Of a DNA stretch of 64,000 bases, positions 13,491 to 60,530 are shown one piece after another (within the stretch, counting starts at the first letter, position 1; each line of letters begins with the position of its first letter). The notes under the pieces are model-generated. The model did not search any database and was not told the origin of the DNA. It was given only the letters and a program-made list of their open reading frames with translations. Location: assembly GCF_044324785.1 (NCBI RefSeq), contig NZ_CP172127.1. One strand, given 5' to 3'. The position numbers were made by a program, and so were the translations under genes. Origin of the DNA: Escherichia coli (GTDB taxonomy: Bacteria > Pseudomonadota > Gammaproteobacteria > Enterobacterales > Enterobacteriaceae).

Positions 13491-14446
13491 TGAAGCAACT
13501 TTGGTTTGCCATGTCATTAGTGACAGGTAGCCTGTTATTCTCTGCTAACGCCTCGGCCACTCCCGCGTCCGGGGCGTTATTACAGCAGATGAACCTGGCC
13601 AGTCAGTCACTGAATTACGAGCTGTCATTTATCAGCATCAATAAACAGGGTGTTGAGTCTCTGCGTTATCGACATGCACGCCTCGATAACCGTCCTCTTG
13701 CACAATTGTTGCAAATGGATGGCCCGCGCCGGGAAGTGGTACAGCGCGGCAATGAAATCAGCTATTTTGAACCGGGACTTGAACCGTTCACGCTTAATGG
13801 CGATTACATTGTTGATTCTCTGCCATCGCTCATCTATACCGATTTCAAACGCCTTTCTCCTTACTACGACTTTATCTCCGTCGGGCGCACGCGTATTGCT
13901 GATCGTCTTTGCGAAGTCATTCGCGTGGTTGCCCGAGATGGTACACGCTACAGCTACATCGTGTGGATGGACACCGAATCGAAATTACCGATGCGGGTTG
14001 ATCTCCTTGATCGCGATGGTGAAACGCTGGAACAATTTCGCGTGATTGCTTTTAACGTCAATCAGGATATCGGCAGCAGTATGCAGACGCTGGCGAAGGC
14101 AAATTTGCCGCCGTTGCTTTCTGTTCCTGTAGGTGAAAAAGCTAAATTCAGCTGGACGCCAACCTGGTTGCCACAGGGTTTTAGCGAAGTTTCCAGTAGT
14201 CGACGTCCGCTACCGACGATGGACAACATGCCTATCGAATCACGTCTCTATTCCGACGGATTATTCAGCTTCTCGGTAAACGTTAACCGCGCTACGCCAT
14301 CGAGCACCGATCAGATGTTGCGCACCGGGCGCAGAACCGTCAGTACAAGCGTACGTGATAACGCCGAAATCACCATTGTCGGTGAACTGCCGCCGCAAAC
14401 GGCGAAACGCATTGCCGAGAATATTAAGTTCGGGGCAGCGCAATGA
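13490..14446 (+). CDS. rseB: SigmaE regulatory protein RseB
   Basis: 318 aa with signal peptide; start overlaps the rseA stop (TAATG). Confidence 0.95.
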   Translation: MKQLWFAMSLVTGSLLFSANASATPASGALLQQMNLASQSLNYELSFISINKQGVESLRYRHARLDNRPLAQLLQMDGPRREVVQRGNEISYFEPGLEPFTLNGDYIVDSLPSLIYTDFKRLSPYYDFISVGRTRIADRLCEVIRVVARDGTRYSYIVWMDTESKLPMRVDLLDRDGETLEQFRVIAFNVNQDIGSSMQTLAKANLPPLLSVPVGEKAKFSWTPTWLPQGFSEVSSSRRPLPTMDNMPIESRLYSDGLFSFSVNVNRATPSSTDQMLRTGRRTVSTSVRDNAEITIVGELPPQTAKRIAENIKFGAAQ

Positions 14447-14922
14447 TCAAAGAGTGGGCTACCGTCGTCTCCTGGGAAAACGGGCAGGCGCTGGTTAGTT
14501 GTGATGTTAAAGCCTCATGCAGCAGCTGCGCTTCACGCGCCGGTTGCGGTAGCCGCGTGTTGAATAAACTTGGCCCGCAAACCACGCATACCATTGTCGT
14601 ACCCTGTGATGAGCCGTTAGTGCCGGGGCAAAAAGTGGAATTGGGGATCGCCGAAGGCAGCCTGCTTAGCTCCGCATTACTGGTTTATATGTCGCCGCTG
14701 GTGGGATTATTTCTCATCGCTTCGCTATTTCAGCTACTCTTTGCTTCAGATATTGCAGCATTATGCGGTGCGATTCTCGGTGGCGTTGGTGGATTCCTGA
14801 TTGCACGTGGCTGCTCTCGAAAGTTTGCTGCCCGGTCTGAATGGCAACCGATCATCTTAAGCGTGGCATTGCCGCCTGGCCTTGTGCGATTTGAAACATC
14901 TTCGGAAGACGCGAGCCAGTGA
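14443..14922 (+). CDS. rseC: SoxR-reducing system / sigmaE regulatory protein RseC
   Basis: 159 aa; N-terminal Cys cluster and two TM helices; start overlaps the rseB stop (ATGA). Confidence 0.9.
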   Translation: MIKEWATVVSWENGQALVSCDVKASCSSCASRAGCGSRVLNKLGPQTTHTIVVPCDEPLVPGQKVELGIAEGSLLSSALLVYMSPLVGLFLIASLFQLLFASDIAALCGAILGGVGGFLIARGCSRKFAARSEWQPIILSVALPPGLVRFETSSEDASQ

Positions 14923-15119
14923 TTTCACTGGCTTTGTTGCATTTTGCATAACAAATGCGAGGACGTTTCCAGATACCACAATCCATACGGTATGAACATT
15001 TCCTCGCCTCAATGTTGTAGTGTAGAATGCGGCGTTTCTATTAATACAGACGTTAAGCTCAGAACAGCGACTTCTAAAAGCCTGGTTAACCGGGCATTAA
15101 GGCACAATAATCATACTTT

Positions 15120-16919
<1,800 letters not shown>

Positions 16920-18013: not shown

Positions 18014-18054
18014 ATTCCCCCGAAGTTTAAGGTTGGCACCTCCAGGTTGCCACG

Positions 18055-18148
18055 GCACACGAAACAGCGTTGGTCCCCATATACCGGTAAACTGAAACTG
18101 CAGCGAAGCAGTTAGCAGAGCCATGTATATCAGGTCTGTTTCGTGTGC
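18055..18148 (+). promoter_or_regulatory. rnc 5' leader stem-loop (RNase III autoregulatory target)
   Basis: Perfect 13-nt arms GCACACGAAACAG (18055-18067) and CTGTTTCGTGTGC (18136-18148) enclosing 68 nt, 34 nt upstream of the rnc ATG. Confidence 0.7.
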
Positions 18149-18151
18149 TGA

Positions 18152-19764
<1,613 letters not shown>

Positions 19765-21644: not shown

Positions 21645-21726
21645 TTATAAAGTAAAACCCCCGAACTGGTAAGGAACGGGGGTTTTACTTTTTAACTTTA
21701 ATTTTGTGCAGCACACGATTCCAACG
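21645..21726 (-). ncRNA. ohsC: Probable OhsC antitoxin sRNA of the shoB type I toxin-antitoxin pair (boundaries approximate)
   Basis: Plus-strand 21706-21724 (GTGCAGCACACGATTCCAA) repeats shoB 5'-UTR 21955-21973 at 18 of 19 positions, so a minus-strand transcript is antisense to the shoB leader; candidate minus-strand -10 CATAAT (complement of 21733-21738); terminator at 21652-21688. Confidence 0.35.
21652..21693. terminator. Bidirectional intrinsic terminator (acpS on plus strand; probable OhsC 3' end on minus strand)
   Basis: GTAAAACCCCCG / CGGGGGTTTTAC 12-bp stem with T-rich flanks on both strands. Confidence 0.75.
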
Positions 21727-22048: not shown

Positions 22049-22129
22049 ATGACTGATTGCCGATACCTGATTAAACGGGTCATCAAAATCATCATTGCTG
22101 TTTTACAGCTGATCCTTCTGTTCTTATAA
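22049..22129 (+). CDS. shoB: Type I toxin ShoB, 26 aa (MTDCRYLIKRVIKIIIAVLQLILLFL)
   Basis: ATG 22049 to TAA 22127-22129, preceded by AAGGAAAAA; hydrophobic single-helix peptide; lies in the acpS-yfhL gap; below ORF-track cutoff. Confidence 0.85.
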   Translation: MTDCRYLIKRVIKIIIAVLQLILLFL

Positions 22130-30904: not shown

Positions 30905-31088
30905 AGTGGCTCATTCACCGACTTATGTCAGCCCCTTCGGGACGTGCTACATAAAATTCGAATGACGCACAACAAGGTGCCTGCCGTCCAACTTCTGATA
31001 TCAGCGTAGCTATATCAACCATCGGGCGAAACGTCGAGTTAGGCACCGCCTTATTCCATAACAAAGCCGGGTAATTCCCGGCTTTGTT
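30905..31088 (+). ncRNA. glmY: GlmY small RNA (SroF/tke1), about 184 nt
   Basis: Starts about 12 nt after the -12 element (AGTGGCTCATTCACC...) and ends at terminator hairpin AAAGCCGGG taatt CCCGGCTTT (31063-31085) plus GTTGT; in the purL-glrK gap next to the GlrK/GlrR genes. Confidence 0.75.
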
Positions 31089-36737: not shown

Positions 36738-37991
36738 ATGTTAAAGCGTGAAATGAACATTGCCGATTATGATGCCGAACTGTGGCAGGCTATGGAGCAG
36801 GAAAAAGTACGTCAGGAAGAGCACATCGAACTGATCGCCTCCGAAAACTACACCAGCCCGCGCGTAATGCAGGCGCAGGGTTCTCAGCTGACCAACAAAT
36901 ATGCTGAAGGTTATCCGGGCAAACGCTACTACGGCGGTTGCGAGTATGTTGATATCGTTGAACAACTGGCGATCGATCGTGCGAAAGAACTGTTCGGTGC
37001 TGACTACGCTAACGTCCAGCCGCACTCCGGCTCCCAGGCTAACTTTGCGGTGTACACCGCGCTGCTGGAACCAGGTGATACCGTTCTGGGTATGAACCTG
37101 GCGCATGGCGGTCACCTGACTCACGGTTCTCCGGTTAACTTCTCCGGTAAACTGTACAACATCGTTCCTTACGGTATCGATGCTAGCGGTCATATCGACT
37201 ACGCCGATCTGGAAAAACAAGCCAAAGAACACAAACCGAAAATGATTATCGGTGGCTTCTCTGCATATTCCGGCGTGGTTGACTGGGCGAAAATGCGTGA
37301 AATCGCTGACAGCATCGGTGCTTACCTGTTCGTTGATATGGCGCACGTTGCGGGCCTGGTTGCTGCTGGCGTCTACCCGAACCCGGTTCCTCATGCTCAC
37401 GTTGTTACTACCACCACTCACAAAACCCTGGCGGGTCCGCGCGGTGGCCTGATCCTGGCGAAAGGTGGTAGCGAAGAGCTGTACAAAAAACTGAACTCTG
37501 CCGTTTTCCCTGGTGGTCAGGGCGGTCCGTTGATGCACGTAATCGCCGGTAAAGCGGTTGCTCTGAAAGAAGCGATGGAGCCTGAGTTCAAAACTTACCA
37601 GCAGCAGGTCGCGAAAAACGCTAAAGCGATGGTAGAAGTGTTCCTCGAGCGCGGCTACAAAGTGGTTTCCGGCGGTACTGATAACCACCTGTTCCTGGTT
37701 GATCTGGTTGATAAAAACCTGACCGGTAAAGAAGCTGACGCCGCTCTGGGCCGTGCTAACATCACCGTTAACAAAAACAGCGTACCGAACGATCCGAAGA
37801 GCCCGTTTGTGACCTCCGGTATTCGCGTGGGTACTCCGGCGATTACCCGTCGTGGCTTTAAAGAAGCCGAAGCGAAAGAACTGGCTGGCTGGATGTGTGA
37901 CGTGCTGGACAGCATCAATGATGAAGCGGTTATTGAGCGCATCAAAGGTAAAGTTCTCGACATCTGCGCACGTTACCCGGTTTACGCATAA
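36738..37991 (+). CDS. glyA: Serine hydroxymethyltransferase, 417 aa
   Basis: ORF 36732..37991; ATG 36738 after AGGAG; PLP-lysine motif [14 protein letters not shown]. Confidence 0.98.
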
Positions 37992-38024
37992 GCGAAACGG
38001 TGATTTGCTGACAATGTGCTCGTT

Positions 38025-38128
38025 GTTCATGCCGGAAGCGGCATGAACGCCTTATCCGGCCTACAAAACTTTGCAAATTCAATATATTGCAATATCCGTG
38101 TAGGCCTGATAAGCGTAGTGCATCAGGC
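38025..38128. repeat. REP/BIME cluster downstream of glyA
   Basis: Hairpin GTTCATGCCG...CGGCATGAAC, then REP copies GCCTTATCCGGCCTAC and inverted GTAGGCCTGATAAGCG...CATCAGGC. Confidence 0.8.
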
Positions 38129-38149
38129 AATCTTAGGTTTGTGATCATC

Positions 38150-38171
38150 AAGGCTTCCTTCGGGAAGCCTT
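38150..38171. terminator. Hairpin AAGGCTTCC ttcg GGAAGCCTT between glyA and yphH (putative terminator)
   Basis: Perfect 9-bp stem with tetraloop; flanks are not strongly T-rich. Confidence 0.45.
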
Positions 38172-38188
38172 TCTACGTTATTGCGCCA

Positions 38189-39382
38189 TCAAATCTGCCG
38201 TAACTGCGCCTCAACATACAAATAGCCAATTCCCAGCACCTGTTGTGCGCGGCTTAATTGCCCAAAGCCAATCTGTGTCGCTTTCACGCTCGGTCCTTCG
38301 TCGCGGTCGAAAGGGTTAAATCCCGTCTGGCGAATGATGGTATTAAGCCAGTTCTCACCAAAGGCACAACTGCGACCGTACAACCAAATCTGATTAATAT
38401 TGAGGATGTTGAGGAAGTTATACAGACTCAAACCAATGGCGTTGGCAGAGCGATCAACCCAACTGGTGATCCACGGTTCTCCACTCTGCCAGGCAGCGAT
38501 TAACTGCGCAGTAGTCAGTTTTTCAGGATCAAGCTGAGTATTAACCGGTTGTGATTTTAGCCATACCCGCGCCTGTTTTTTTAATGCGCTTAACGAGGCG
38601 ACGGTTTCCAGGCAGCCATAACGTCCGCAGTCGCAGACGACGCCATCCGGATTAACGATGGTGTGACCAATCTGTCCGCTACCATACAAACTGCCGCGAT
38701 AAATTTGCTCGTTAATCACGAACGACGAGCCAATGCCGTAATCAACGTTGATCACGCAGAAATCCCGGCCCTGCGAATTATTTTGCCATTTCTCCGCCAG
38801 CGCCAGCATCACGCAGTCATTATCGACCATCACCCGAATGCCGAGCTTCTCTTCCAGCAGATACTTTACCTCAACCGGCGTTGTCCACGGTGCTTGCGGC
38901 ATGGTTTGCGACACGCCAGTCACCGGATCAACCTGACCGTGGATTGCCAGCGCCAGGTTGATGGTACGGTCCGGCCACAATTTACGGTGGCGATGCCAGC
39001 ATTTTTCGATTTCGGACAGCAGCGCCTGCGGCGTCGGTGCATCAATCTGTAAATACTCAAATTCACCTTTCGGACTTAAACAGGCGTTAGCGACCTGACA
39101 CTCAATACTGGTGGGCGTCACGTTCAGGCACAGCGTCCAGTCACCTTCCGGCGCAATCAGCCATGTACCGCTACTATGCCCGCGCGTCTGGCTTTCATCG
39201 TCGATATTCACCACCCGTTTTTCGCTTTCCAGTTCCTGCAAAATATTACTGACCGCCGGAATCGAAATTTGCGCCAGCCGGGCCAGGGTTGATTTATTGG
39301 CGCGCTTTTGCCGGTACAGCAGTTCCAGAATCACGCATTTGTTATGGTGGCGAATCTGTTGATTATTAATGCAGGCTCTCAT
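38189..39382 (-). CDS. yphH: ROK (NagC/Mlc)-family transcriptional regulator YphH, 397 aa
   Basis: ORF 38189..39388 (GTG); ATG (cat 39380-39382) gives MRACINNQQIRHH...; N-terminal HTH and ROK CxCGxxGC zinc motif. Confidence 0.85.
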   Translation of the reverse strand: MRACINNQQIRHHNKCVILELLYRQKRANKSTLARLAQISIPAVSNILQELESEKRVVNIDDESQTRGHSSGTWLIAPEGDWTLCLNVTPTSIECQVANACLSPKGEFEYLQIDAPTPQALLSEIEKCWHRHRKLWPDRTINLALAIHGQVDPVTGVSQTMPQAPWTTPVEVKYLLEEKLGIRVMVDNDCVMLALAEKWQNNSQGRDFCVINVDYGIGSSFVINEQIYRGSLYGSGQIGHTIVNPDGVVCDCGRYGCLETVASLSALKKQARVWLKSQPVNTQLDPEKLTTAQLIAAWQSGEPWITSWVDRSANAIGLSLYNFLNILNINQIWLYGRSCAFGENWLNTIIRQTGFNPFDRDEGPSVKATQIGFGQLSRAQQVLGIGYLYVEAQLRQI

Positions 39383-39499
39383 CTTCACTAAACCTTGTTT
39401 AGTTAATTGCGTGATTATTCCGCGAAAACATTGCCAGATTGTTCAATACACTGCCACAAATCTTTTAATTCAGTATGTCTTGTTAATATTGAGGGCACC

Positions 39500-42400
39500 A
39501 TGACTCCAGTAAAAGTGTGGCAAGAGCGCGTTGAGATCCCGACCTATGAAACCGGGCCGCAGGATATACATCCCATGTTCCTGGAAAATCGCGTTTATCA
39601 GGGATCGTCCGGCGCGGTTTATCCCTACGGCGTGACCGATACGCTGAGCGAGCAGAAAACCCTGAAATCCTGGCAGGCGGTGTGGCTGGAAAACGACTAC
39701 ATCAAAGTGATGATCCTGCCGGAACTGGGCGGTCGGGTGCATCGCGCGTGGGATAAAGTGAAACAGCGCGATTTTGTCTATCACAATGAAGTCATTAAAC
39801 CGGCGCTGGTGGGGCTGCTGGGACCGTGGATCTCCGGCGGGATTGAGTTTAACTGGCCGCAACACCATCGCCCGACCACCTTTATGCCCGTTGATTTCAC
39901 CCTCGAAGCCCATGAAGACGGCGCACAGACGGTGTGGGTAGGCGAAACGGAGCCGATGCATGGTTTACAGGTGATGACAGGTTTCACCCTGCGTCCTGAC
40001 CGGGCGGCGCTGGAAATCGCCAGCCGCGTCTATAACGGCAACGCCACGCCGCGTCATTTCTTGTGGTGGGCCAACCCGGCAGTGAAAGGGGGTGAAGGGC
40101 ATCAGAGCGTTTTCCCACCGGATGTGACTGCGGTGTTTGATCACGGCAAACGGGCCGTCTCTGCTTTCCCCATCGCCACCGGCACTTACTACAAAGTGGA
40201 CTACTCCGCTGGAGTGGACATTTCTCGCTATAAAAATGTGCCTGTTCCAACCTCATATATGGCTGAAAAATCACAGTACGATTTTGTTGGCGCGTGGTGT
40301 CACGATGAAGATGGCGGTTTGCTGCACGTTGCCAACCACCATATTGCGCCAGGTAAAAAACAGTGGAGTTGGGGACACAGTGAATTTGGCCAGGCGTGGG
40401 ATAAGAGTCTGACCGACAATAACGGCCCGTATATCGAACTGATGACTGGTATTTTTGCCGATAACCAGCCCGATTTTACCTGGCTTGATGCTTACGAAGA
40501 GAAGCGTTTCGAGCAGTATTTCCTGCCTTATCATTCTCTGGGCATGGTGCAAAATGCCTCCCGCGATGCGGTGATAAAACTCCAGCGTAGTGAGCGGGGG
40601 ATTGAGTGGGGGCTGTATGCCATCTCTCCGTTGAACGGATACCGCCTGGCGATCCGCGAAATCGGCAAATGCAACGCGTTACTTGATGATGCCGTGGCCT
40701 TGACACCAGCGACCGCCATCCAGGGCGTGTTGCACGGTATCAATCCTGAAAGGCTGACCATTGAGCTCTCCGATGCCGACGGCAATATTGTACTGAGTTA
40801 TCAGGAACATCAGCCGCAAGAGTTGCCGTTGCCGGACGTCGCCAAAGCGCCACTGGCAGCACAAGACATTACCAGTACAGATGAAGCCTGGTTTATCGGT
40901 CAGCATCTGGAGCAATATCATCACGCCAGCCGTTCACCGTTCGATTACTACCTGCGCGGCGTGGCGCTGGATCCGCTGGATTATCGCTGTAATCTGGCGC
41001 TGGCGATGCTGGAATATAACCGCGCAGATTTCCTGCAAGCGGTGGCGTATGCCACTCAGGCGCTGAAACGCGCACATGCGCTGAACAAAAATCCGCAGTG
41101 CGGACAGGCGAGTTTGATTCGCGCCAGTGCTTACGAACGTCAGGGGCAATATCAACAAGCCGAAGAGGATTTCTGGCGTGCGGTCTGGAGCGGCAACAGT
41201 AAAGCCGGTGGCTATTATGGTCTGGCACGGCTGGCGGCGCGTAATGGTCACGTCGACGCTGGTCTGGATTTTTGCCAACAAAGTCTTCGCGCCTGCCCAA
41301 CCAATCAGGAAGTGCTTTGCCTGCATAATCTGCTGCTGGTGTTAAGTGGTCGTCAGGACAACGCGCGTTTGCAGCGTGAGAAACTGCTGCGTGATTATCC
41401 GCTGAACGCCACTCTGTGGTGGCTGAACTGGTTCGATGGTCGTAGCGAATCAGCCCTCGCGCAGTGGCGCAGTCTGTGTCAGGGACGCGACGTTAACGCC
41501 CTGATGACCGCCGGGCAACTGATTAACTGGGGAATGCCCACCCTGGCGGCAGAGATGCTGAACGCACTGGACTGCCAGCGCACGCTGCCGCTTTACTTGC
41601 AAGCCAGCATGCTGCCGAAAGCTGAACGCGGCGAACTGGTCACAAAAGCCATTTATGTCTTCCCGCAGTTTGTCCGTTTCCCGAATACGCTGGAAGAAGT
41701 GGCGGCGCTGGAGAGTATTGAAGAGTGCTGGTTTGCCCGTCATTTACTGGCCTGCTTCTACTACAACAAGCGCAGCTACAACAAAGCCATTACTTTATGG
41801 CAACGTTGCGTAGAGATGTCGCCGGAGTTTGCCGACGGCTGGCGCGGGTTAGCGATCCATGCGTGGAATAAGCAACACGATTATGAGCTGGCCGCGCGTT
41901 ATCTTGATAATGCTTATCAGCTTGCTCCGCAGGATGCACGTCTGCTTTTCGAACGGGATTTGCTGGATAAGTTAAGCGGAGCCACACCGGAGAAACGACT
42001 GGCGCGTCTGGAAAATAATCTGGAAATTGCGCTGAAACGCGACGACATGACCGCAGAACTGCTCAATTTGTGGCATCTCACGGGTCAAGCAGACAAAGCG
42101 GCGGACATTCTCGCCACGCGCAAATTCCACCCGTGGGAAGGCGGGGAAGGGAAGGTCACCAGTCAGTTTATCCTCAACCAGTTATTACGCGCCTGGCAGC
42201 ATCTTGATGCCAGAGAGCCGCAGCAGGCCAGCGAACTGCTTCATGCCGCGCTGCATTATCCGGAGAATTTAAGCGAAGGCCGTTTACCGGGGCAAACTGA
42301 CAACGACATCTGGTTCTGGCAGGCGATATGCGCCAACGCGCAGGGTGATGAAACTGAAGCGACGCGTTGTTTACGTCTGGCGGCGACTGGCGATCGCACC

Positions 42401-42781
42401 ATTAACATTCACAGTTATTACAACGATCAGCCGGTTGATTATCTCTTCTGGCAAGGAATGGCGCTGCGACTGCTGGGCGAACAACAAATCGCACAGCAAC
42501 TGTTTAGTGAAATGAAACAGTGGGCGCAAGAGATGGCGAAAACCAGTATCGAGGCGGATTTCTTTGCTGTTTCACAACCTGACCTGTTGTCGCTGTATGG
42601 CGATTTACAACAGCAGCATAAAGAAAAATGCCTGATGGTGGCGATGCTGGCGTCCGCGGGACTAGGGGAGGTTGCGCAATATGAATCTGCTCGTGCTGAA
42701 TTGACGGCGATTAATCCGGCCTGGCCGAAAGCAGCATTATTCACCACCGTGATGCCTTTTATTTTTAACCGCGTTCACTAA
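39500..42781 (+). CDS. yphG: Large TPR-repeat protein YphG (start uncertain: ATG 39500 with GAGGG RBS, or TTG 39407)
   Basis: Continuous ORF 39407..42781 (1124 codons from TTG, 1093 from ATG); TPR-like repeats in the C-terminal two-thirds. Confidence 0.8.
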   Translation: MTPVKVWQERVEIPTYETGPQDIHPMFLENRVYQGSSGAVYPYGVTDTLSEQKTLKSWQAVWLENDYIKVMILPELGGRVHRAWDKVKQRDFVYHNEVIKPALVGLLGPWISGGIEFNWPQHHRPTTFMPVDFTLEAHEDGAQTVWVGETEPMHGLQVMTGFTLRPDRAALEIASRVYNGNATPRHFLWWANPAVKGGEGHQSVFPPDVTAVFDHGKRAVSAFPIATGTYYKVDYSAGVDISRYKNVPVPTSYMAEKSQYDFVGAWCHDEDGGLLHVANHHIAPGKKQWSWGHSEFGQAWDKSLTDNNGPYIELMTGIFADNQPDFTWLDAYEEKRFEQYFLPYHSLGMVQNASRDAVIKLQRSERGIEWGLYAISPLNGYRLAIREIGKCNALLDDAVALTPATAIQGVLHGINPERLTIELSDADGNIVLSYQEHQPQELPLPDVAKAPLAAQDITSTDEAWFIGQHLEQYHHASRSPFDYYLRGVALDPLDYRCNLALAMLEYNRADFLQAVAYATQALKRAHALNKNPQCGQASLIRASAYERQGQYQQAEEDFWRAVWSGNSKAGGYYGLARLAARNGHVDAGLDFCQQSLRACPTNQEVLCLHNLLLVLSGRQDNARLQREKLLRDYPLNATLWWLNWFDGRSESALAQWRSLCQGRDVNALMTAGQLINWGMPTLAAEMLNALDCQRTLPLYLQASMLPKAERGELVTKAIYVFPQFVRFPNTLEEVAALESIEECWFARHLLACFYYNKRSYNKAITLWQRCVEMSPEFADGWRGLAIHAWNKQHDYELAARYLDNAYQLAPQDARLLFERDLLDKLSGATPEKRLARLENNLEIALKRDDMTAELLNLWHLTGQADKAADILATRKFHPWEGGEGKVTSQFILNQLLRAWQHLDAREPQQASELLHAALHYPENLSEGRLPGQTDNDIWFWQAICANAQGDETEATRCLRLAATGDRTINIHSYYNDQPVDYLFWQGMALRLLGEQQIAQQLFSEMKQWAQEMAKTSIEADFFAVSQPDLLSLYGDLQQQHKEKCLMVAMLASAGLGEVAQYESARAELTAINPAWPKAALFTTVMPFIFNRVH

Positions 42782-42797
42782 ACCTTATTAACTGTAA

Positions 42798-42834
42798 TAT
42801 TTGAGCGGCACGCGCTGCCGCTCACGCTCAAATA
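42798..42834. other. Nested inverted repeat between yphG and yphF
   Basis: TATTTGAGCG...CGCTCAAATA outer arms with inner GAGCGGCA/TGCCGCTC arms; 17 nt after the yphG stop. Confidence 0.5.
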
Positions 42835-42877
42835 ATTAAAATAAGCCGTTGTAAATAAAAACCCTACAGGAGGCACT

Positions 42878-43861
42878 ATGCCTAAAAAAATGAGAACAAC
42901 CCGTAATCTATTATTAATGGCTACGCTATTAGGTAGCGCACTATTCGCCAGGGCTGCGGATAAAGAAATGACCATTGGCGCAATATACCTTGATACCCAG
43001 GGATATTACGCTGGCGTGCGTCAGGGCGTTCAGGATGCGGCAAAAGATTCTTCAGTACAGGTACAGTTAATTGAAACTAACGCCCAGGGTGATATTTCGA
43101 AAGAAAGTACCTTTGTTGATACCCTCGTGGCGCGTAATGTCGATGCCATTATTTTATCGGCAGTGTCTGAAAATGGCAGTAGCCGTACCGTTCGTCGCGC
43201 CAGTGAAGCGGGTATTCCGGTGATTTGCTACAACACCTGTATTAATCAAAAAGGCGTCGATAAATATGTCTCGGCGTATCTGGTCGGCGATCCGCTGGAA
43301 TTTGGTAAAAAACTGGGTAACGCTGCCGCCGATTATTTTATTGCCAACAAAATTGACCAGCCGAAAATTGCCGTTATCAATTGCGAAGCCTTTGAAGTTT
43401 GTGTGCAACGACGTAAAGGGTTTGAAGAAGTATTAAAAGCCCGCGTTCCCGGCGCGCAAATTGTCGCTAATCAGGAAGGGACTGTTTTAGATAAAGCGAT
43501 TTCCGTTGGTGAAAAACTAATTATCTCCACGCCGGATCTCAACGCCATTATGGGCGAATCGGGCGGTGCGACACTCGGCGCGGTAAAAGCGGTACGTAAT
43601 CAAAATCAGGCCGGAAAAATTGCTGTTTTCGGTTCTGATATGACCACTGAAATTGCTCAGGAGCTGGAAAACAACCAGGTGCTGAAAGCGGTGGTGGATA
43701 TTTCCGGTAAGAAAATGGGCAATGCTGTTTTCGCGCAAACTTTGAAGGTTATCAATAAACAAGCCGACGGTGAAAAAGTGATTCAGGTGCCTATCGATCT
43801 CTATACCAAAACGGAAGACGGTAAACAGTGGCTGGCAACGCACGTTGATGGTCTGCCCTAA
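42878..43861 (+). CDS. yphF: ABC transporter periplasmic sugar-binding protein YphF
   Basis: 327 aa with signal peptide; AGGAGG RBS. Confidence 0.9.
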   Translation: MPKKMRTTRNLLLMATLLGSALFARAADKEMTIGAIYLDTQGYYAGVRQGVQDAAKDSSVQVQLIETNAQGDISKESTFVDTLVARNVDAIILSAVSENGSSRTVRRASEAGIPVICYNTCINQKGVDKYVSAYLVGDPLEFGKKLGNAAADYFIANKIDQPKIAVINCEAFEVCVQRRKGFEEVLKARVPGAQIVANQEGTVLDKAISVGEKLIISTPDLNAIMGESGGATLGAVKAVRNQNQAGKIAVFGSDMTTEIAQELENNQVLKAVVDISGKKMGNAVFAQTLKVINKQADGEKVIQVPIDLYTKTEDGKQWLATHVDGLP

Positions 43862-43883
43862 TCGCTGATTCGCAGAGGTCCCT

Positions 43884-45395
43884 ATGTTCACGGCAACAGA
43901 GGCAGTCCCGGTAGCAAAAGTGGTGGCAGGAAATAAGCGTTATCCCGGCGTCGTTGCGTTGGATAACGTTAACTTCACGCTCAATAAAGGCGAAGTTCGT
44001 GCGCTGTTAGGCAAAAACGGCGCGGGCAAATCGACCCTCATTCGAATGCTTACCGGTAGCGAACGTCCGGATAGCGGTGATATCTGGATTGGCGAGACGT
44101 GACTGGAAGGTGACGAAGCTACGCTGACTCGCCGTGCCGCTGAACTGGGGGTACGCGCGGTTTATCAGGAGTTAAGTCTGGTGGAAGGGCTGACGGTGGC
44201 GGAAAACCTCTGCCTCGGTCAATGGCCCCGCCGCAACGGCATGATTGATTACCCGCAAATGGCGCAGGATGCCCAACGTTGCTTACTGGCGCTGGGCGTT
44301 GACGTTAGTCCTGAACAACTTGTTTCAACACTAAGCCCGGCGCAAAAGCAGCTGGTGGAAATTGCGCGGGTGATGAAAGGCGAGCCGCGCGTGGTCATTC
44401 TTGATGAACCTACCAGTTCGCTTGCCAGTGCGGAAGTTGAACTGGTGATCAGCGCGGTTAAAAAGATGTCGGCACTGGGCGTGGCGGTGATTTATGTCAG
44501 CCACCGGATGGAAGAAATTCGCCGCATTGCCTCCTGTGCCACCGTTATGCGCGATGGTCAGGTGGCGGGCGATGTGATGCTCGAAAACACCTCCACGCAT
44601 CATATTGTGTCGCTAATGCTCGGGCGCGATCACGTTGATATTGCGCCGGTTTCCCCTCAGGAAATTGTCGATCAGGCCGTGCTGGAAGTCCGTGCGTTAC
44701 GCCATAAGCCCAAGCTGGAGGATATCAGCTTTACGCTCCGTCGTGGCGAAGTACTCGGCATTGCTGGCCTGCTGGGGGCAGGGCGCAGTGAATTGTTGAA
44801 AGCCATAGTTGGGCTGGATACGTATGAACAGGGCGAAATTGTTATCAACGGCGAGAAAATCACGCGCCCCGATTACGGCGACATGCTGAAACGCGGCATT
44901 GGCTATACGCCAGAAAACCGCAAAGAAGCGGGGATCATTCCCTGGCTGGGCGTTGACGAAAATACGGTGCTGACCAATCGGCAAAAAATCAGCGCCAACG
45001 GTGTGCTGCAATGGTCCACCATCCGCCGCCTGACCGAAGAGGTGATGCAGCGGATGACGGTCAAGGCCGCCAGTAGCGAAACGCCCATCGGCACGCTTTC
45101 TGGCGGCAATCAGCAAAAAGTGGTGATCGGTCGTTGGGTCTATGCCGCCAGCCAGATTTTGTTGCTCGACGAGCCAACGCGTGGCGTCGATATCGAAGCC
45201 AAACAGCAGATTTACCGTATTGTCCGCGAGCTGGCTGCCGAAGGAAAAAGCGTGGTGTTTATCTCCAGTGAAGTGGAGGAGTTGCCGCTGGTGTGTGACC
45301 GCATCCTGTTATTACAGCACGGCACGTTCTCGCAGGAGTTTCACGCTCCGGTCAATGTGGATGAGCTGATGTCCGCCATTCTGTCTGTGCACTGA
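43884..45395 (+). pseudogene. yphE: Sugar ABC transporter ATP-binding protein YphE interrupted by an in-frame TGA at codon 73 (44100-44102)
   Basis: ORF-track entries 43884..44102 (72 aa, Walker [10 protein letters not shown]) and 44181..45395 (404 aa) are in the same frame; the only break is TGA 44100-44102; 72+1+430 codons = 503, the recalled intact YphE length. Confidence 0.85.
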
Positions 45396-45419
45396 TGAAT
45401 TTTACCGAGGAACCTGAAG

Positions 45420-46418
45420 ATGTCTGCTTCGTCATTACCATTGCCGCAGGGCAAGAGCGTCTCGCTCAAACAATTTGTCAGTCGCCATATTAATGAGATC
45501 GGTTTGCTGGTGGTGATTGCCATTCTTTATCTGGTCTTCTCCCTGAACGCGCCTGGCTTTATCTCATTGAATAACCAGATGAACGTGCTGCGCGATGCCG
45601 CCACCATCGGGATCGCCGCCTGGGCGATGACGCTGATTATTATCTCTGGTGAAATTGATGTCAGCGTTGGGCCGATGGTGGCTTTTGTCTCGGTGTGCCT
45701 GGCATTTTTGCTGCAATTTGAAGTTCCGCTGGCGGTGGCGTGTCTGCTGGTGTTGCTGTTAGGCGCGCTGATGGGAACGCTGGCCGGGGTGCTGCGCGGC
45801 GTGTTTAACGTACCAAGTTTCGTGGCCACGCTGGGGCTGTGGAGCGCCCTGCGCGGAATGGGGCTGTTTATGACCAACGCACTGCCAGTGCCGATTGACG
45901 AAAATGAGGTGTTGGACTGGTTGGGGGGACAATTTCTCGGTGTGCCGGTATCTGCGCTGATCATGATGGTGCTGTTTGCGCTGTTTGTGTTCATTAGCCG
46001 CAAAACCGCCTTCGGGCGCTCGGTTTTTGCCGTTGGCGGTAATGCCACGGCGGCGCAGTTATGCGGTATTAACGTTCGTCGGGTACGCATTCTTATTTTT
46101 ACCCTTTCGGGATTATTAGCAGCGGTGACCGGCATTTTGTTGGCGGCGCGCCTCGGTTCTGGTAACGCAGGTGCGGCAAACGGTCTGGAGTTTGACGTCA
46201 TCGCCGCGGTCGTGGTCGGCGGTACGGCACTTTCCGGCGGTCGCGGTTCCCTGTTCGGTACATTGCTTGGTGTGCTGGTGATTACGCTAATCGGTAACGG
46301 TCTGGTGCTGCTCGGTATTAACTCCTTTTTCCAGCAGGTGGTACGCGGCGTCATCATCGTGGTGGCGGTGCTGGCGAATATCTTGCTGACCCAGCGAAGC
46401 AGTAAAGCGAAACGCTAA
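45420..46418 (+). CDS. yphD: ABC transporter permease YphD
   Basis: 332 aa multi-TM permease (ribose/xylose-type); RBS GAGG. Confidence 0.9.
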   Translation: MSASSLPLPQGKSVSLKQFVSRHINEIGLLVVIAILYLVFSLNAPGFISLNNQMNVLRDAATIGIAAWAMTLIIISGEIDVSVGPMVAFVSVCLAFLLQFEVPLAVACLLVLLLGALMGTLAGVLRGVFNVPSFVATLGLWSALRGMGLFMTNALPVPIDENEVLDWLGGQFLGVPVSALIMMVLFALFVFISRKTAFGRSVFAVGGNATAAQLCGINVRRVRILIFTLSGLLAAVTGILLAARLGSGNAGAANGLEFDVIAAVVVGGTALSGGRGSLFGTLLGVLVITLIGNGLVLLGINSFFQQVVRGVIIVVAVLANILLTQRSSKAKR

Positions 46419-46483
46419 ACCTTAACGCCCCTGGCGCGGGTGCGGCAGGGATGAAAATTAATCGTATTGTTAATGAGGGATTT

Positions 46484-47545
46484 ATGAAAACGATGCTGGC
46501 AGCTTATTTACCAGGAAATTCGACCGTCGATCTGCGGGAAGTTGCGGTGCCGACGCCGGGGATTAACCAGGTACTGATCAAAATGAAATCCTCCGGAATT
46601 TGCGGAAGCGATGTCCACTATATCTACCACCAGCACCGCGCTACGGCGGCGGCACCCGATAAACCGTTATACCAGGGATTTATCAACGGTCATGAACCGT
46701 GCGGGCAAATTGTGGCGATGGGGCAAGGCTGCCGCCATTTTAAAGAGGGCGACCGTGTGCTGGTGTATCATATTTCTGGCTGTGGTTTTTGCCCGAACTG
46801 CCGTCGTGGTTTTCCTATCTCTTGTACTGGCGAAGGAAAAGCGGCTTACGGCTGGCAGCGTGACGGCGGCCATGCTGAATACCTGCTGGCGGAAGAAAAA
46901 GATCTGATCCTGCTCCCGGACGCGCTGAGCTATGAAGATGGTGCGTTTATCAGTTGCGGCGTTGGTACAGCGTATGAAGGGATTTTGCGCGGCGAAGTTT
47001 CCGGCAGTGATAACGTGCTGGTGGTCGGTCTGGGGCCGGTCGGCATGATGGCGATGATGCTGGCGAAAGGTCGCGGTGCAAAACGGATCATCGGCGTTGA
47101 TATGCTGCCGGAACGTCTGGCGATGGCAAAACAGTTAGGGGTGATGGATCACGGCTATTTAGCGACCACCGAAGGTCTGCCGCAGATAATTGCTGAACTT
47201 ACCCACGGTGGCGCGGATGTTGCGCTCGATTGTTCTGGTAATGCCGCAGGTCGCTTGCTGGCACTGCGATCCACCGCTGACTGGGGACGGGTGGTTTACA
47301 TCGGAGAAACCGGAAAAGTGGAGTTCGAGGTCAGCGCCGATCTGATGCACCATCAACGGCGGATTATCGGCTCCTGGGTGACCAGTCTGTTCCATATGGA
47401 AAAATGCGCCCATGATCTGACGGACTGGAAACTGTGGCCGCGTAACGCCATTACCCATCGCTTCACGCTGGAACAGGCAGGTGATGCCTATGCGCTGATG
47501 GCGAGCGGCAAATGCGGGAAAGTTGTGATTAACTTCCCGGATTAA
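46484..47545 (+). CDS. yphC: Zinc-dependent alcohol/sugar dehydrogenase YphC, 353 aa
   Basis: ORF 46451..47545; ATG 46484 after GAGGGA; MDR motifs GHEPCG and GLGPVG. Confidence 0.85.
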   Translation: MKTMLAAYLPGNSTVDLREVAVPTPGINQVLIKMKSSGICGSDVHYIYHQHRATAAAPDKPLYQGFINGHEPCGQIVAMGQGCRHFKEGDRVLVYHISGCGFCPNCRRGFPISCTGEGKAAYGWQRDGGHAEYLLAEEKDLILLPDALSYEDGAFISCGVGTAYEGILRGEVSGSDNVLVVGLGPVGMMAMMLAKGRGAKRIIGVDMLPERLAMAKQLGVMDHGYLATTEGLPQIIAELTHGGADVALDCSGNAAGRLLALRSTADWGRVVYIGETGKVEFEVSADLMHHQRRIIGSWVTSLFHMEKCAHDLTDWKLWPRNAITHRFTLEQAGDAYALMASGKCGKVVINFPD

Positions 47546-47556
47546 GGAGTTAGCGG

Positions 47557-48429
47557 ATGACCATCTATACCTTGTCCCACGGGTCGCTAAAGCTGGGCGT
47601 TTCTGACCAGGGCGGCGTAATCGAAGGCTTCTGGCGCGATACGACGCCGCTCTTACGTCCTGGTAAAAAAAGCGGTGTGGCAACCGATGCCTCTTGTTTT
47701 CCGCTGGTGCCATTTGCAAACCGGGTGAGCGGCAACCGTTTTGTCTGGCAGGGGCGTGAGTATCAACTGCAACCGAATGTTGAGTGGGATGCGCACTATC
47801 TGCACGGCGACGGCTGGCTGGGGCAGTGGCAATGTGTCTCGCGCAGCGAAGATAGCTTGTGTCTGGTGTATGAACATCGCAGCGGTGTTTATCACTATCG
47901 GGTAAGTCAGGCGTTTCATTTAACGGCGGATACGCTGACGGTGACGCTCTCTGTCACCAATCAAGGGGCAGAGACGCTGCCATTTGGTACCGGCTGGCAT
48001 CCTTATTTTCCGTTGTCACCACAAACGCGGATTCAGGCGCAGGCGAGCGGTTACTGGCTGGAGCGGGAGCAGTGGCTGGCGGGTGAGTTTTGCGAGCAGC
48101 TACCGCAGGAGCTGGATTTCAACCAGCTCGCGCCGTTGCCGCACCAGTGGGTAAACAATGGCTTTGCCGGATGGAATGGTCAGGCCCGCATCGAGCAGCC
48201 GCAGGAGGGTTATGCCATCATCATGGAAACGACGCCACCTGCACCATGTTATTTCATCTTTGTTTCCGACCCGGCGTTTGATAAAGGATATGCGTTTGAT
48301 TTCTTCTGTCTGGAACCGATGAGCCATGCGCCGGATGACCATCATCGCCCGGAAGGGGGTGATCTCATTGCGCTTGCACCAGGGGAATCAACAACTTCAG
48401 AGATGTCGTTGCGGGTTGCGTTACTGTAA
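47557..48429 (+). CDS. yphB: Aldose 1-epimerase-family protein YphB
   Basis: 290 aa; ORF-track match, RBS AAGGAG. Confidence 0.85.
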   Translation: MTIYTLSHGSLKLGVSDQGGVIEGFWRDTTPLLRPGKKSGVATDASCFPLVPFANRVSGNRFVWQGREYQLQPNVEWDAHYLHGDGWLGQWQCVSRSEDSLCLVYEHRSGVYHYRVSQAFHLTADTLTVTLSVTNQGAETLPFGTGWHPYFPLSPQTRIQAQASGYWLEREQWLAGEFCEQLPQELDFNQLAPLPHQWVNNGFAGWNGQARIEQPQEGYAIIMETTPPAPCYFIFVSDPAFDKGYAFDFFCLEPMSHAPDDHHRPEGGDLIALAPGESTTSEMSLRVALL

Positions 48430-48437
48430 TTTATAAA

Positions 48438-48477
48438 ATGCCGGATAAGGCGTTCACGCCGCATCCGGCATGTTTTT
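48438..48477. repeat. REP-type palindrome between yphB and yphA, also serving as terminator
   Basis: ATGCCGGAT aaggcgttcacgccgc ATCCGGCAT followed by GTTTTT. Confidence 0.75.
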
Positions 48478-48898
48478 AACGCCGATCGAGAGAAATTGCC
48501 CCCGGCCCGGTAATTGCCAACAGCAGGAATGCGCCAGCGATACTGACATTCTTCCAGAAATTAATCATATTTGGCCCAACCGCATCGCCGGTCATATCCC
48601 AGTAATGGTGACCAATTACCGCTGTACCCAGCGTGTAGAAAATAAACAGCACCGCCAGCGGACGGGTGAAAAAGCCAAGCACGATTAATATCGCGGCGGG
48701 CACTTCCATAACTACCGCAATAATCGCTGCCAGCATCGGCATTGGCGCGCCCAGCGAGGCCATATATTGGACCGTACCGTCAAAACCCATCATTTTGGGA
48801 AAACCAAAAATAATGAAAATTAAGACCACGGCGATACGGGCAATTAATAACAAAACGGGGCGTGCAGCACCAAAATCAAAATAACGTAGTGAGTTCAT
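48476..48898 (-). CDS. yphA: DoxX-family inner membrane protein YphA, 140 aa
   Basis: ORF 48476..48970; internal ATG (cat 48896-48898) gives [14 protein letters not shown]... Confidence 0.85.
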
Positions 48899-48994
48899 AA
48901 CCAATCCCTTTGCAAGATAATGTGATTTAAACGTAATACACACTCTGGTACCTCGCCACGCCCCAGGCATTGAGATATTCGCTAATTATCCTGG

Positions 48995-50206
<1,212 letters not shown>

Positions 50207-51019
50207 TTAAAGATCCAGCCCAGCCGCTACGTGGCGAATGCCGCGAATCGCTAAACCCGCATCAGCGTTGATCATCACACCGCTTAATGCGCGATTATTG
50301 CGCCGCGATGCCAACATCACATACGGACCCGTAAAATCCGCCGGTTGCGGGAAAAATTGCAGCGGTAAAATGGCGGCAATTTTCTCAGGCGTCAGAGACT
50401 GCATTATCGAGGTTTCACTTTGCCCGAGCGCCTGTGGGCCGCGCAGGTCGCTGGCCATACCACACGGGCCGACGCCATTCACCCGCACTTTCGGTGCCAG
50501 TTCATAAGCCAGTTGGCGAATAAGTCCGGTTGCGGCATGTTTACTGGCGGTGTACAGCGGGCCACCGCCGCCGGGATACCAGGCGGCGTTTGACAGTGTG
50601 AAAATCATGCTGCCTTCACTGGCGATTAACGCCGGAGCGCAGGCTTTTGCGCCCAGCAGGTAACCGAGTACGTTGACGTTAAACAGCTCGTGGAAGCCAG
50701 TTTCGAGCGTCTCTGCAGGAGTATTAACCAGTGAGGCATTGTGATCCCAGATGCCCGCATTGCCGATAAAACAATCCAGCTTGCCAGAACGAGTCAGGAT
50801 CTGATCGACCGCGCGTTGATAATCGGCATAACAGGTCACGTTACCTTCCACCGCCAGAATATGTTCGCCAAATCGCTGACGCAGACTGGCGACTTTTGCC
50901 GCCGACAGTTCCAGCGTGGCAACCTGCGCGCCTTCTTCGATAAATCGCTCGACCAGCGCCAGGCCTAATCCCGATCCGCCGCCGGTAATAAAGATGGACT
51001 CGTTATGCAGATCGCTCAT
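50207..51019 (-). CDS. hcaB: 2,3-dihydroxy-2,3-dihydrophenylpropionate dehydrogenase (SDR)
   Basis: 270 aa; SDR motifs TGGGSGLG and YTASK. Confidence 0.95.
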
Positions 51020-51335
51020 GGCTGCGCCTCCGGTAAGTCGATGAAGATGTCACCACCTTCAACGTGTACTGGATAAGTGGTGAGCGGATCGGTGGCGGGC
51101 AGGCATAATGCTTTCCCCGTTTTCAGGCAAAAACTGGCGGCGTGCAGCGGGCACTCCACCGTGGCGTCATCTTCCAGATACCCTTCTGACATCGACGCAT
51201 TACCATGGCTGCAACGATCGTTAATGGCATAAAACTCGCCGCCTACGTTGAACAGGGCGATGACGGGCGAGGTATCGATCCGGAGAGCCTCACCCTCCGG
51301 CACATCCGCAACGGGACACGCATAAATTCGATTCA

Positions 51336-51336
<1 letters not shown>
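51016..51336 (-). CDS. hcaC: Rieske ferredoxin subunit of 3-phenylpropionate dioxygenase
   Basis: 106 aa; Rieske CSH...CPLH motifs. Confidence 0.95.
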
Positions 51337-53248
<1,912 letters not shown>

Positions 53249-60419: not shown

Positions 60420-60530
60420 TAAAAAGTATTCAGAATCAGGCCGGAGTGTTTAACACTCCGTAAACACGGTCGTACATCCAGCCGGTAGCCTGGTTCCTTG
60501 CATTGAGTGATGTACGGAGTTTATAGAGCA

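Follow-up and report, generated by a model that had tools for sequence, protein, structure and literature searches.

In a stretch of 64,000 nt of Escherichia coli DNA, referred to as the window in the following, the gene yphE is interrupted by an in-frame TGA codon, which raises the question whether the gene has been lost by a genuine mutation, whether the codon is read through or recoded, or whether the sequence is in error at this position. The yphE frame spans 43884-45395 on the plus strand, from the ATG at 43884 to the natural stop codon TGA at 45393-45395. A first, sequence-only reading had described it as a single frame of 503 positions that is broken only by TGA at 44100-44102, i.e., 72 sense codons, the stop and 430 sense codons, and both the sequence and the translation agree with this description. 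The premature TGA is codon 73 and lies on the plus strand in the context GAG ACG TGA CTG GAA, with C as the next base. The Walker A motif (P-loop) of the first nucleotide-binding domain, GKNGAGKST (residues 43-51), could be read from the translation at 44010-44036 (plus strand), and the stop is located 24 codons downstream of its Lys49, as had been stated before. In the second domain the Walker A motif is degenerate in the translation (GLLGAGRSE, with Arg replacing Lys), and the only canonical P-loop of YphE sits upstream of the premature stop.

The yphE region was matched in 5,413 of 5,426 complete RefSeq E. coli genomes, under the product name 'sugar ABC transporter ATP-binding protein', and the gene order around it is the usual one (yphH / yphG-F-E-D-C-B / yphA / hca). 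In K-12, yphE is annotated with 1512 nt, corresponding to 503 aa (WP_000493470.1), and the intact length that the sequence-only reading had given is thereby correct. The window gene is likewise 1512 nt long, contains exactly one internal stop and is colinear with the K-12 gene in an alignment with 0 gaps and 37 differing sites (97.6% identity). The closest complete genome for yphE is ST2747, with eight differences (99.5% identity). A comparison with yphE of other E. coli genomes had been proposed, with CGA (Arg) guessed as the ancestral codon, and this sense codon was indeed found at the equivalents of 44100-44102 in K-12, ST2747, L033, L034 and six further references. As K-12 and ST2747 both carry CGA at codon 73, the lesion is a single C->T transition at 44100. 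The gap-free alignment to K-12, together with the existence of an intact allele that differs only at 44100, also bears out the earlier statement that a point nonsense change is present and not a frameshift or a fusion.

With Arg restored at codon 73, YphE aligns over its full length to the AraG, XylG, AlsA, MglA, YtfR and RbsA families of NCBIfam (AraG: E = 4e-136, residues 17-487), and PF00005 is found twice in the intact protein, which places it among the CUT2-type two-domain sugar ABC ATPases. K-12 YphE and the six proteins named correspond to the window gene in length and two-domain architecture, and the combination of a canonical Walker A motif in the first nucleotide-binding domain with a degenerate one in the second is shared with CUT2-type ATPases. 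Unlike the intact K-12 protein, the window YphE is truncated at codon 73. An equivalog-level identity could not be found, as every NCBIfam score was below the curated cut-off (454 vs. 689 for AraG); the substrate is therefore probably not among the characterised ones. A literature search on yphE and the yph operon returned nothing that addresses their function, only noise or incidental mentions.

A sequencing or assembly error, with CGA as the true codon and an intact yphE, had been offered as the alternative to a real stop. The difference concerns one base, and neither an 81-mer nor a 30-mer of the window that carries the T has a match in the complete RefSeq E. coli genomes (5,380-5,426 genomes searched), so that support for the exact window haplotype with T comes entirely from draft and metagenome assemblies. 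In these, however, the allele recurs: in public assemblies from NCBI, ENA and Logan, the exact 72-aa product (P0001, e.g., EFL9677988.1) is found on 160 contigs in 243 blocks and the window-specific 404-aa product of the remaining frame (P0016, e.g., EFL9677989.1) on 89 contigs. The sequence L003 (GCA_958308385.1) was compared over 6,219 bases and agrees with the window at every one of them, those of the TGA among them. For the counting of TGA carriers, 30-mers were used in which every 28-base seed word contains the T; identity bands of 81-mers were set aside, since neighbouring SNPs blur them. Furthermore, the same stop, designated TGA73 in the following, occurs on another haplotype in two complete RefSeq genomes, AR_0061 (NZ_CP020058.1) and MDK9L1 (NZ_CP081333.1), in both of which PGAP calls yphE a pseudogene with 'internal stop'. 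The TGA73 allele and its reading as a pseudogene are thus already present in public annotation. Since so many independent assemblies contain the allele, the error alternative is effectively refuted and is regarded as extremely improbable.

The stop is therefore treated as real, and intact counterparts of the allele could be found. The repaired protein with Arg73 (P0034) is intact on 20 contigs. The yphE genes of L033 and L034 are identical to the window gene over the whole 1,512 nt except for C at 44100 (gene nt 217), and L033 (GCA_021459405.1) is colinear with the window over 21.5 kb, with five differences within 37445-51811. Since the gene and the operon show no other damage and an intact allele with no further difference is still in circulation, the mutation is a recent one. 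Within the window, yphF, the intact gene for the substrate-binding protein of the same transporter, is located at 42878-43861 (plus strand), and yphD, an intact permease gene, at 45420-46418 (plus strand), 24 nt past yphE, according to the ORF list and the K-12 comparison. The other 59 genes of K-12 that could be placed in the window all align colinearly, with no gap and no internal stop codon, and neither IS elements nor further pseudogenes were seen among the 60 colinear K-12 genes of the window. A Shigella origin of the window was considered, as identity to complete E. coli genomes reaches at best 99.5% for yphE and 98.5% over 24 kb, but it was discarded on account of this colinearity and because the identical sequence is found in assemblies that bear the label E. 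coli. The absence of further decay fits a very young pseudogene, but would also fit residual function.

The similarity to ST2747 is limited to yphE (43884-45384), where two, one and five differences were counted per 500 bp; in the flanks at 40884-43884 and 45384-47384, most bins show 10-23 differences per 500 bp. For the window segment 36000-60000, identity to any complete RefSeq genome is 98.5% at most. From this pattern, the yphE region looks like a recombination mosaic. Some apparent damage to yphA, hcaD and hcaB in the comparison to K-12 was traced to a 1-nt length difference in the yphB-yphA spacer / yphA 3' end (48430-48477), i.e., to an offset artefact, and these genes are intact. The window also contains the RNA elements and small genes that are expected for a region syntenic to K-12, namely the AsrC antisense RNA, rncO, the OhsC antitoxin sRNA with the shoB toxin ORF, GlmY and the iscRS stability element, at 14407-15238 (minus strand), 18022-18236 (plus), 21649-21725 (minus), 22049-22129 (plus), 30905-31052 (plus) and 60420-60529 (plus). 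No tRNA genes were found in its 64,000 nt.

TGA73 is present not only on the window haplotype, but also on the haplotypes L004, L005, the AR_0061 group, L009 and L012/L014, of which the last two, being 5 nt apart, were counted as one haplotype group. The yphE genes of these haplotypes are 32-46 nt apart from that of the window and, between groups, about 12-43 nt from each other. In the AR_0061 group (P0003, 75 contigs), TGA73 is combined with D66E. The AR_0061/MDK9L1 allele has the C->T change at nt 217, the TGA at codon 73 and the yphG-F-E-D-C context in common with the window, but differs from it by 40 other nucleotides, by D66E and by C at the equivalent of 44111. SNPs that separate the TGA73 haplotypes come as near to the stop as 19 bp on its upstream side (44081) and 11 bp on its downstream side (44111), and if TGA73 were shared by common descent, conversion tracts of less than about 30-57 bp would have to be assumed.

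For several of the TGA alleles an intact counterpart of the same type could be assigned. While the window allele differs from L033 and L034 at gene nt 217 only, L005 and its intact counterpart L037 are 1 nt apart over 3,512 bp, AR_0061 differs from L046 by nt 217 within the gene and two further positions in 2 kb of flank, and L004 from L053 and L060 by 3 nt in the gene. Because the nearest neighbour of each TGA allele is an intact one of the same type, independent origins are suggested; for the AR_0061/MDK9L1 allele, the intact twins on both sides likewise point to an origin separate from that of the window. The economical reading of these haplotypes indicates that TGA73 arose independently at least three times.

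The recurrence of the same stop on several haplotypes could also be explained by an unusually mutable C217 in ACG-CGA-CTG. The identical change with at least three independent origins is in line with such a mutational hotspot, and codon 73 is one of just two CGA codons in yphE. On the other hand, the allele was specifically searched for, which introduces an ascertainment bias, and any single transition can be expected to turn up repeatedly once hundreds of thousands of E. coli have been sequenced. As a control, a search was made for the exact N-terminal fragments that further early stops, each one step away, would leave on the common D66 background, and six out of six exist: R54* on 45 contigs, W68* on 66, Q95* on 43, Q113* on 70, W114* on 302 and Q125* on 130 contigs, whereby some of the records bear the label 'partial' and may be cut off by the end of a contig. 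W68* is additionally recorded on the E66 background (P0007), and frameshift products of YphE are recorded as P0002 (96 aa, 163 contigs) and P0015. In yphE, 34-35 transition routes lead to a stop, a good number of which have evidently been taken. Since the other one-step nonsense fragments are about as common as that of TGA73, or more so, codon 73 is probably no special hotspot, and this explanation is considered improbable. Two specific mechanisms were also discarded: deamination at a Dcm site, as the CCWGG motif is absent at codon 73 (44100), and templating by a quasi-palindrome or direct repeat, for which the match of the new GTGAC to GTGAC at 44110-44114 is too short.

YphE is the ATPase of the YphDEF sugar ABC importer, with two fused nucleotide-binding domains, and in the proposed course of events its translation would stop after 72 residues, just beyond the P-loop. 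The N-terminal 72-codon fragment (43884-44099, plus strand), which appears as a separate 72-aa CDS in GenBank-style annotations, includes Walker A and would carry the P-loop alone. The earliest in-frame ATG, GTG or TTG past the premature stop is the GTG at 44181, and the earlier expectation that a product started there lacks the P-loop holds for the 404-codon ORF in the ORF list (44181-45395, plus strand; P0016), which is without residues 1-99 and hence without P-loop and Q-loop. Re-initiation at this GTG is plausible and would yield 404 aa without the domain 1 P-loop and the Q-loop residue Gln95. Nine nucleotides before the GTG, a Shine-Dalgarno-like AGGAG can be read from the sequence at 44167-44171 (plus strand). 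In intact yphE alleles, these bases are codons for Gln95-Glu96; the motif is thus probably incidental, but it might support re-initiation at 44181. The separate 404-aa 'sugar ABC transporter ATP-binding protein' calls by gene callers may arise because AGGAG acts as a chance internal ribosome-binding site. A canonical ATP site would be missing from both fragments, neither of which would contain residues 73-99.

As everything past residue 72 is removed, we infer a loss of YphE function, and the transporter is expected to be inactive except for slight UGA readthrough, probably with insertion of Trp. The gaps of only 22 nt to yphF and 24 nt to yphD imply co-transcription, and in combination with 1.3 kb of untranslated message, Rho-dependent polarity of the premature stop on the downstream genes yphD-C-B could result.

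The residual readthrough leads to a further reading, in which the UGA-C stop is leaky and insertion of Trp provides a low level of functional YphE(R73W), so that the allele is hypomorphic and perhaps tolerated or favoured. The C after the stop, which had already been pointed out, was read as TGAC at 44100-44103, and UGA with C at position +4 is an inefficient terminator in bacteria (PMC5289835). TGA is also the stop codon with the most readthrough in E. coli, where it is decoded chiefly as Trp (PMC11126739), and in the window lineage the rest of the frame shows no damage. However, the higher readthrough values are largely derived from K-12, in which RF2 is defective, and wild strains terminate better (PMC11126739). 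The stop has also not been maintained in evolution: TGA73 is derived, rare and polyphyletic, and no recoding structure is present downstream of it. One TGA73 lineage, L011, has moreover gained a second lesion. Its yphE (GCA_902847155.1, 3001-4473) is of the AR_0061 haplotype with otherwise 0 mismatches, but carries an extra in-frame deletion of 39 bp (gene nt 692-730) between TGATGCTCG direct repeats, which is secondary decay of a TGA73 pseudogene. In addition, relatives disable other yph genes outright, which points to dispensability and not to tuning. Taken together, a leaky allele with a function of its own is very unlikely.

Programmed recoding of the UGA, as selenocysteine or otherwise, was considered as well, as an in-frame UGA lies within an otherwise intact ORF in several lineages. 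In contrast to what would be expected of a recoded codon, this UGA is not conserved, with CGA (Arg) found at codon 73 in almost every one of some 5,400 complete genomes, and every TGA allele derives from an intact one by a single step. Arg73 is also no catalytic Cys-type position. Neither an Rfam family nor a SECIS-like signal or stem-loop was found near the premature stop, and shuffled sequences fold as well as the 61 nt past the UGA (MFE -19.1 vs. -18.8 as the mean of the shuffles, z = -0.11). The probability of recoding is accordingly set practically to zero.

A genuine natural loss-of-function allele, in which C->T at 44100 converts Arg73 (CGA) of YphE into UGA, thus remains the preferred reading, to which we assign a probability of roughly 0.92.

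Lesions elsewhere in the operon were found in several relatives. In L033, which is the closest relative of the window and whose yphE is intact, yphG carries W146* by G->A at the equivalent of window position 39936 (codon 39935-39937; L033 position 6053). In L035 (ENA ERZ28623860), about 256 bp of yphG are gone (window 40344-40701; L035 6717-6818) and the call is shortened to 683 aa; the YphE protein of L035 is that of the repaired window allele. In L045 (GCA_022180225.1, 1-978), an IS1 transposase gene is located in yphF, the product of which is cut to 152 aa, and yphE is intact.

By comparison of L033 with the window, sister lineages have disabled different genes of one operon. In E. coli the yph operon has been knocked out independently many times, the window allele being one such case, which suggests that it is dispensable in many lineages, and the lesions look like those of a conditionally dispensable operon under relaxed selection. 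Alternatively, inactivation of Yph might be positively selected in some E. coli lineages, so that yphE R73* in the window lineage, yphG W146* in its sister, the yphG deletion in a further relative and, in unrelated lineages, R73* at least twice more, IS1 in yphF and the many other YphE nonsense alleles would represent convergent adaptive losses and not neutral decay. This proposal is tentative and rather unlikely; if the loss were selected, the leaky UGA-C would possibly give a reversible or tuned-down state.

With regard to known cases, yphE resembles the strain-specific nonsense pseudogenes of E. coli and Shigella, in which an accessory catabolic or transport gene is hit by a one-step stop, the frame is otherwise undamaged, intact orthologues are present in most strains and the same operon is hit in parallel. 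It is mildly unusual for this class only in the identical base change on at least three backgrounds. yphE in the window is an ordinary, recent nonsense pseudogene of a dispensable transporter. For the annotation, it is best described as a pseudogene with an internal stop and not as two CDS of 72 and 404 aa, and metabolic reconstructions of the strain should treat YphDEF as non-functional. For E. coli in general, the repeated natural knock-outs mark the yph operon as conditionally dispensable and could help to establish in which niche the operon is of use.
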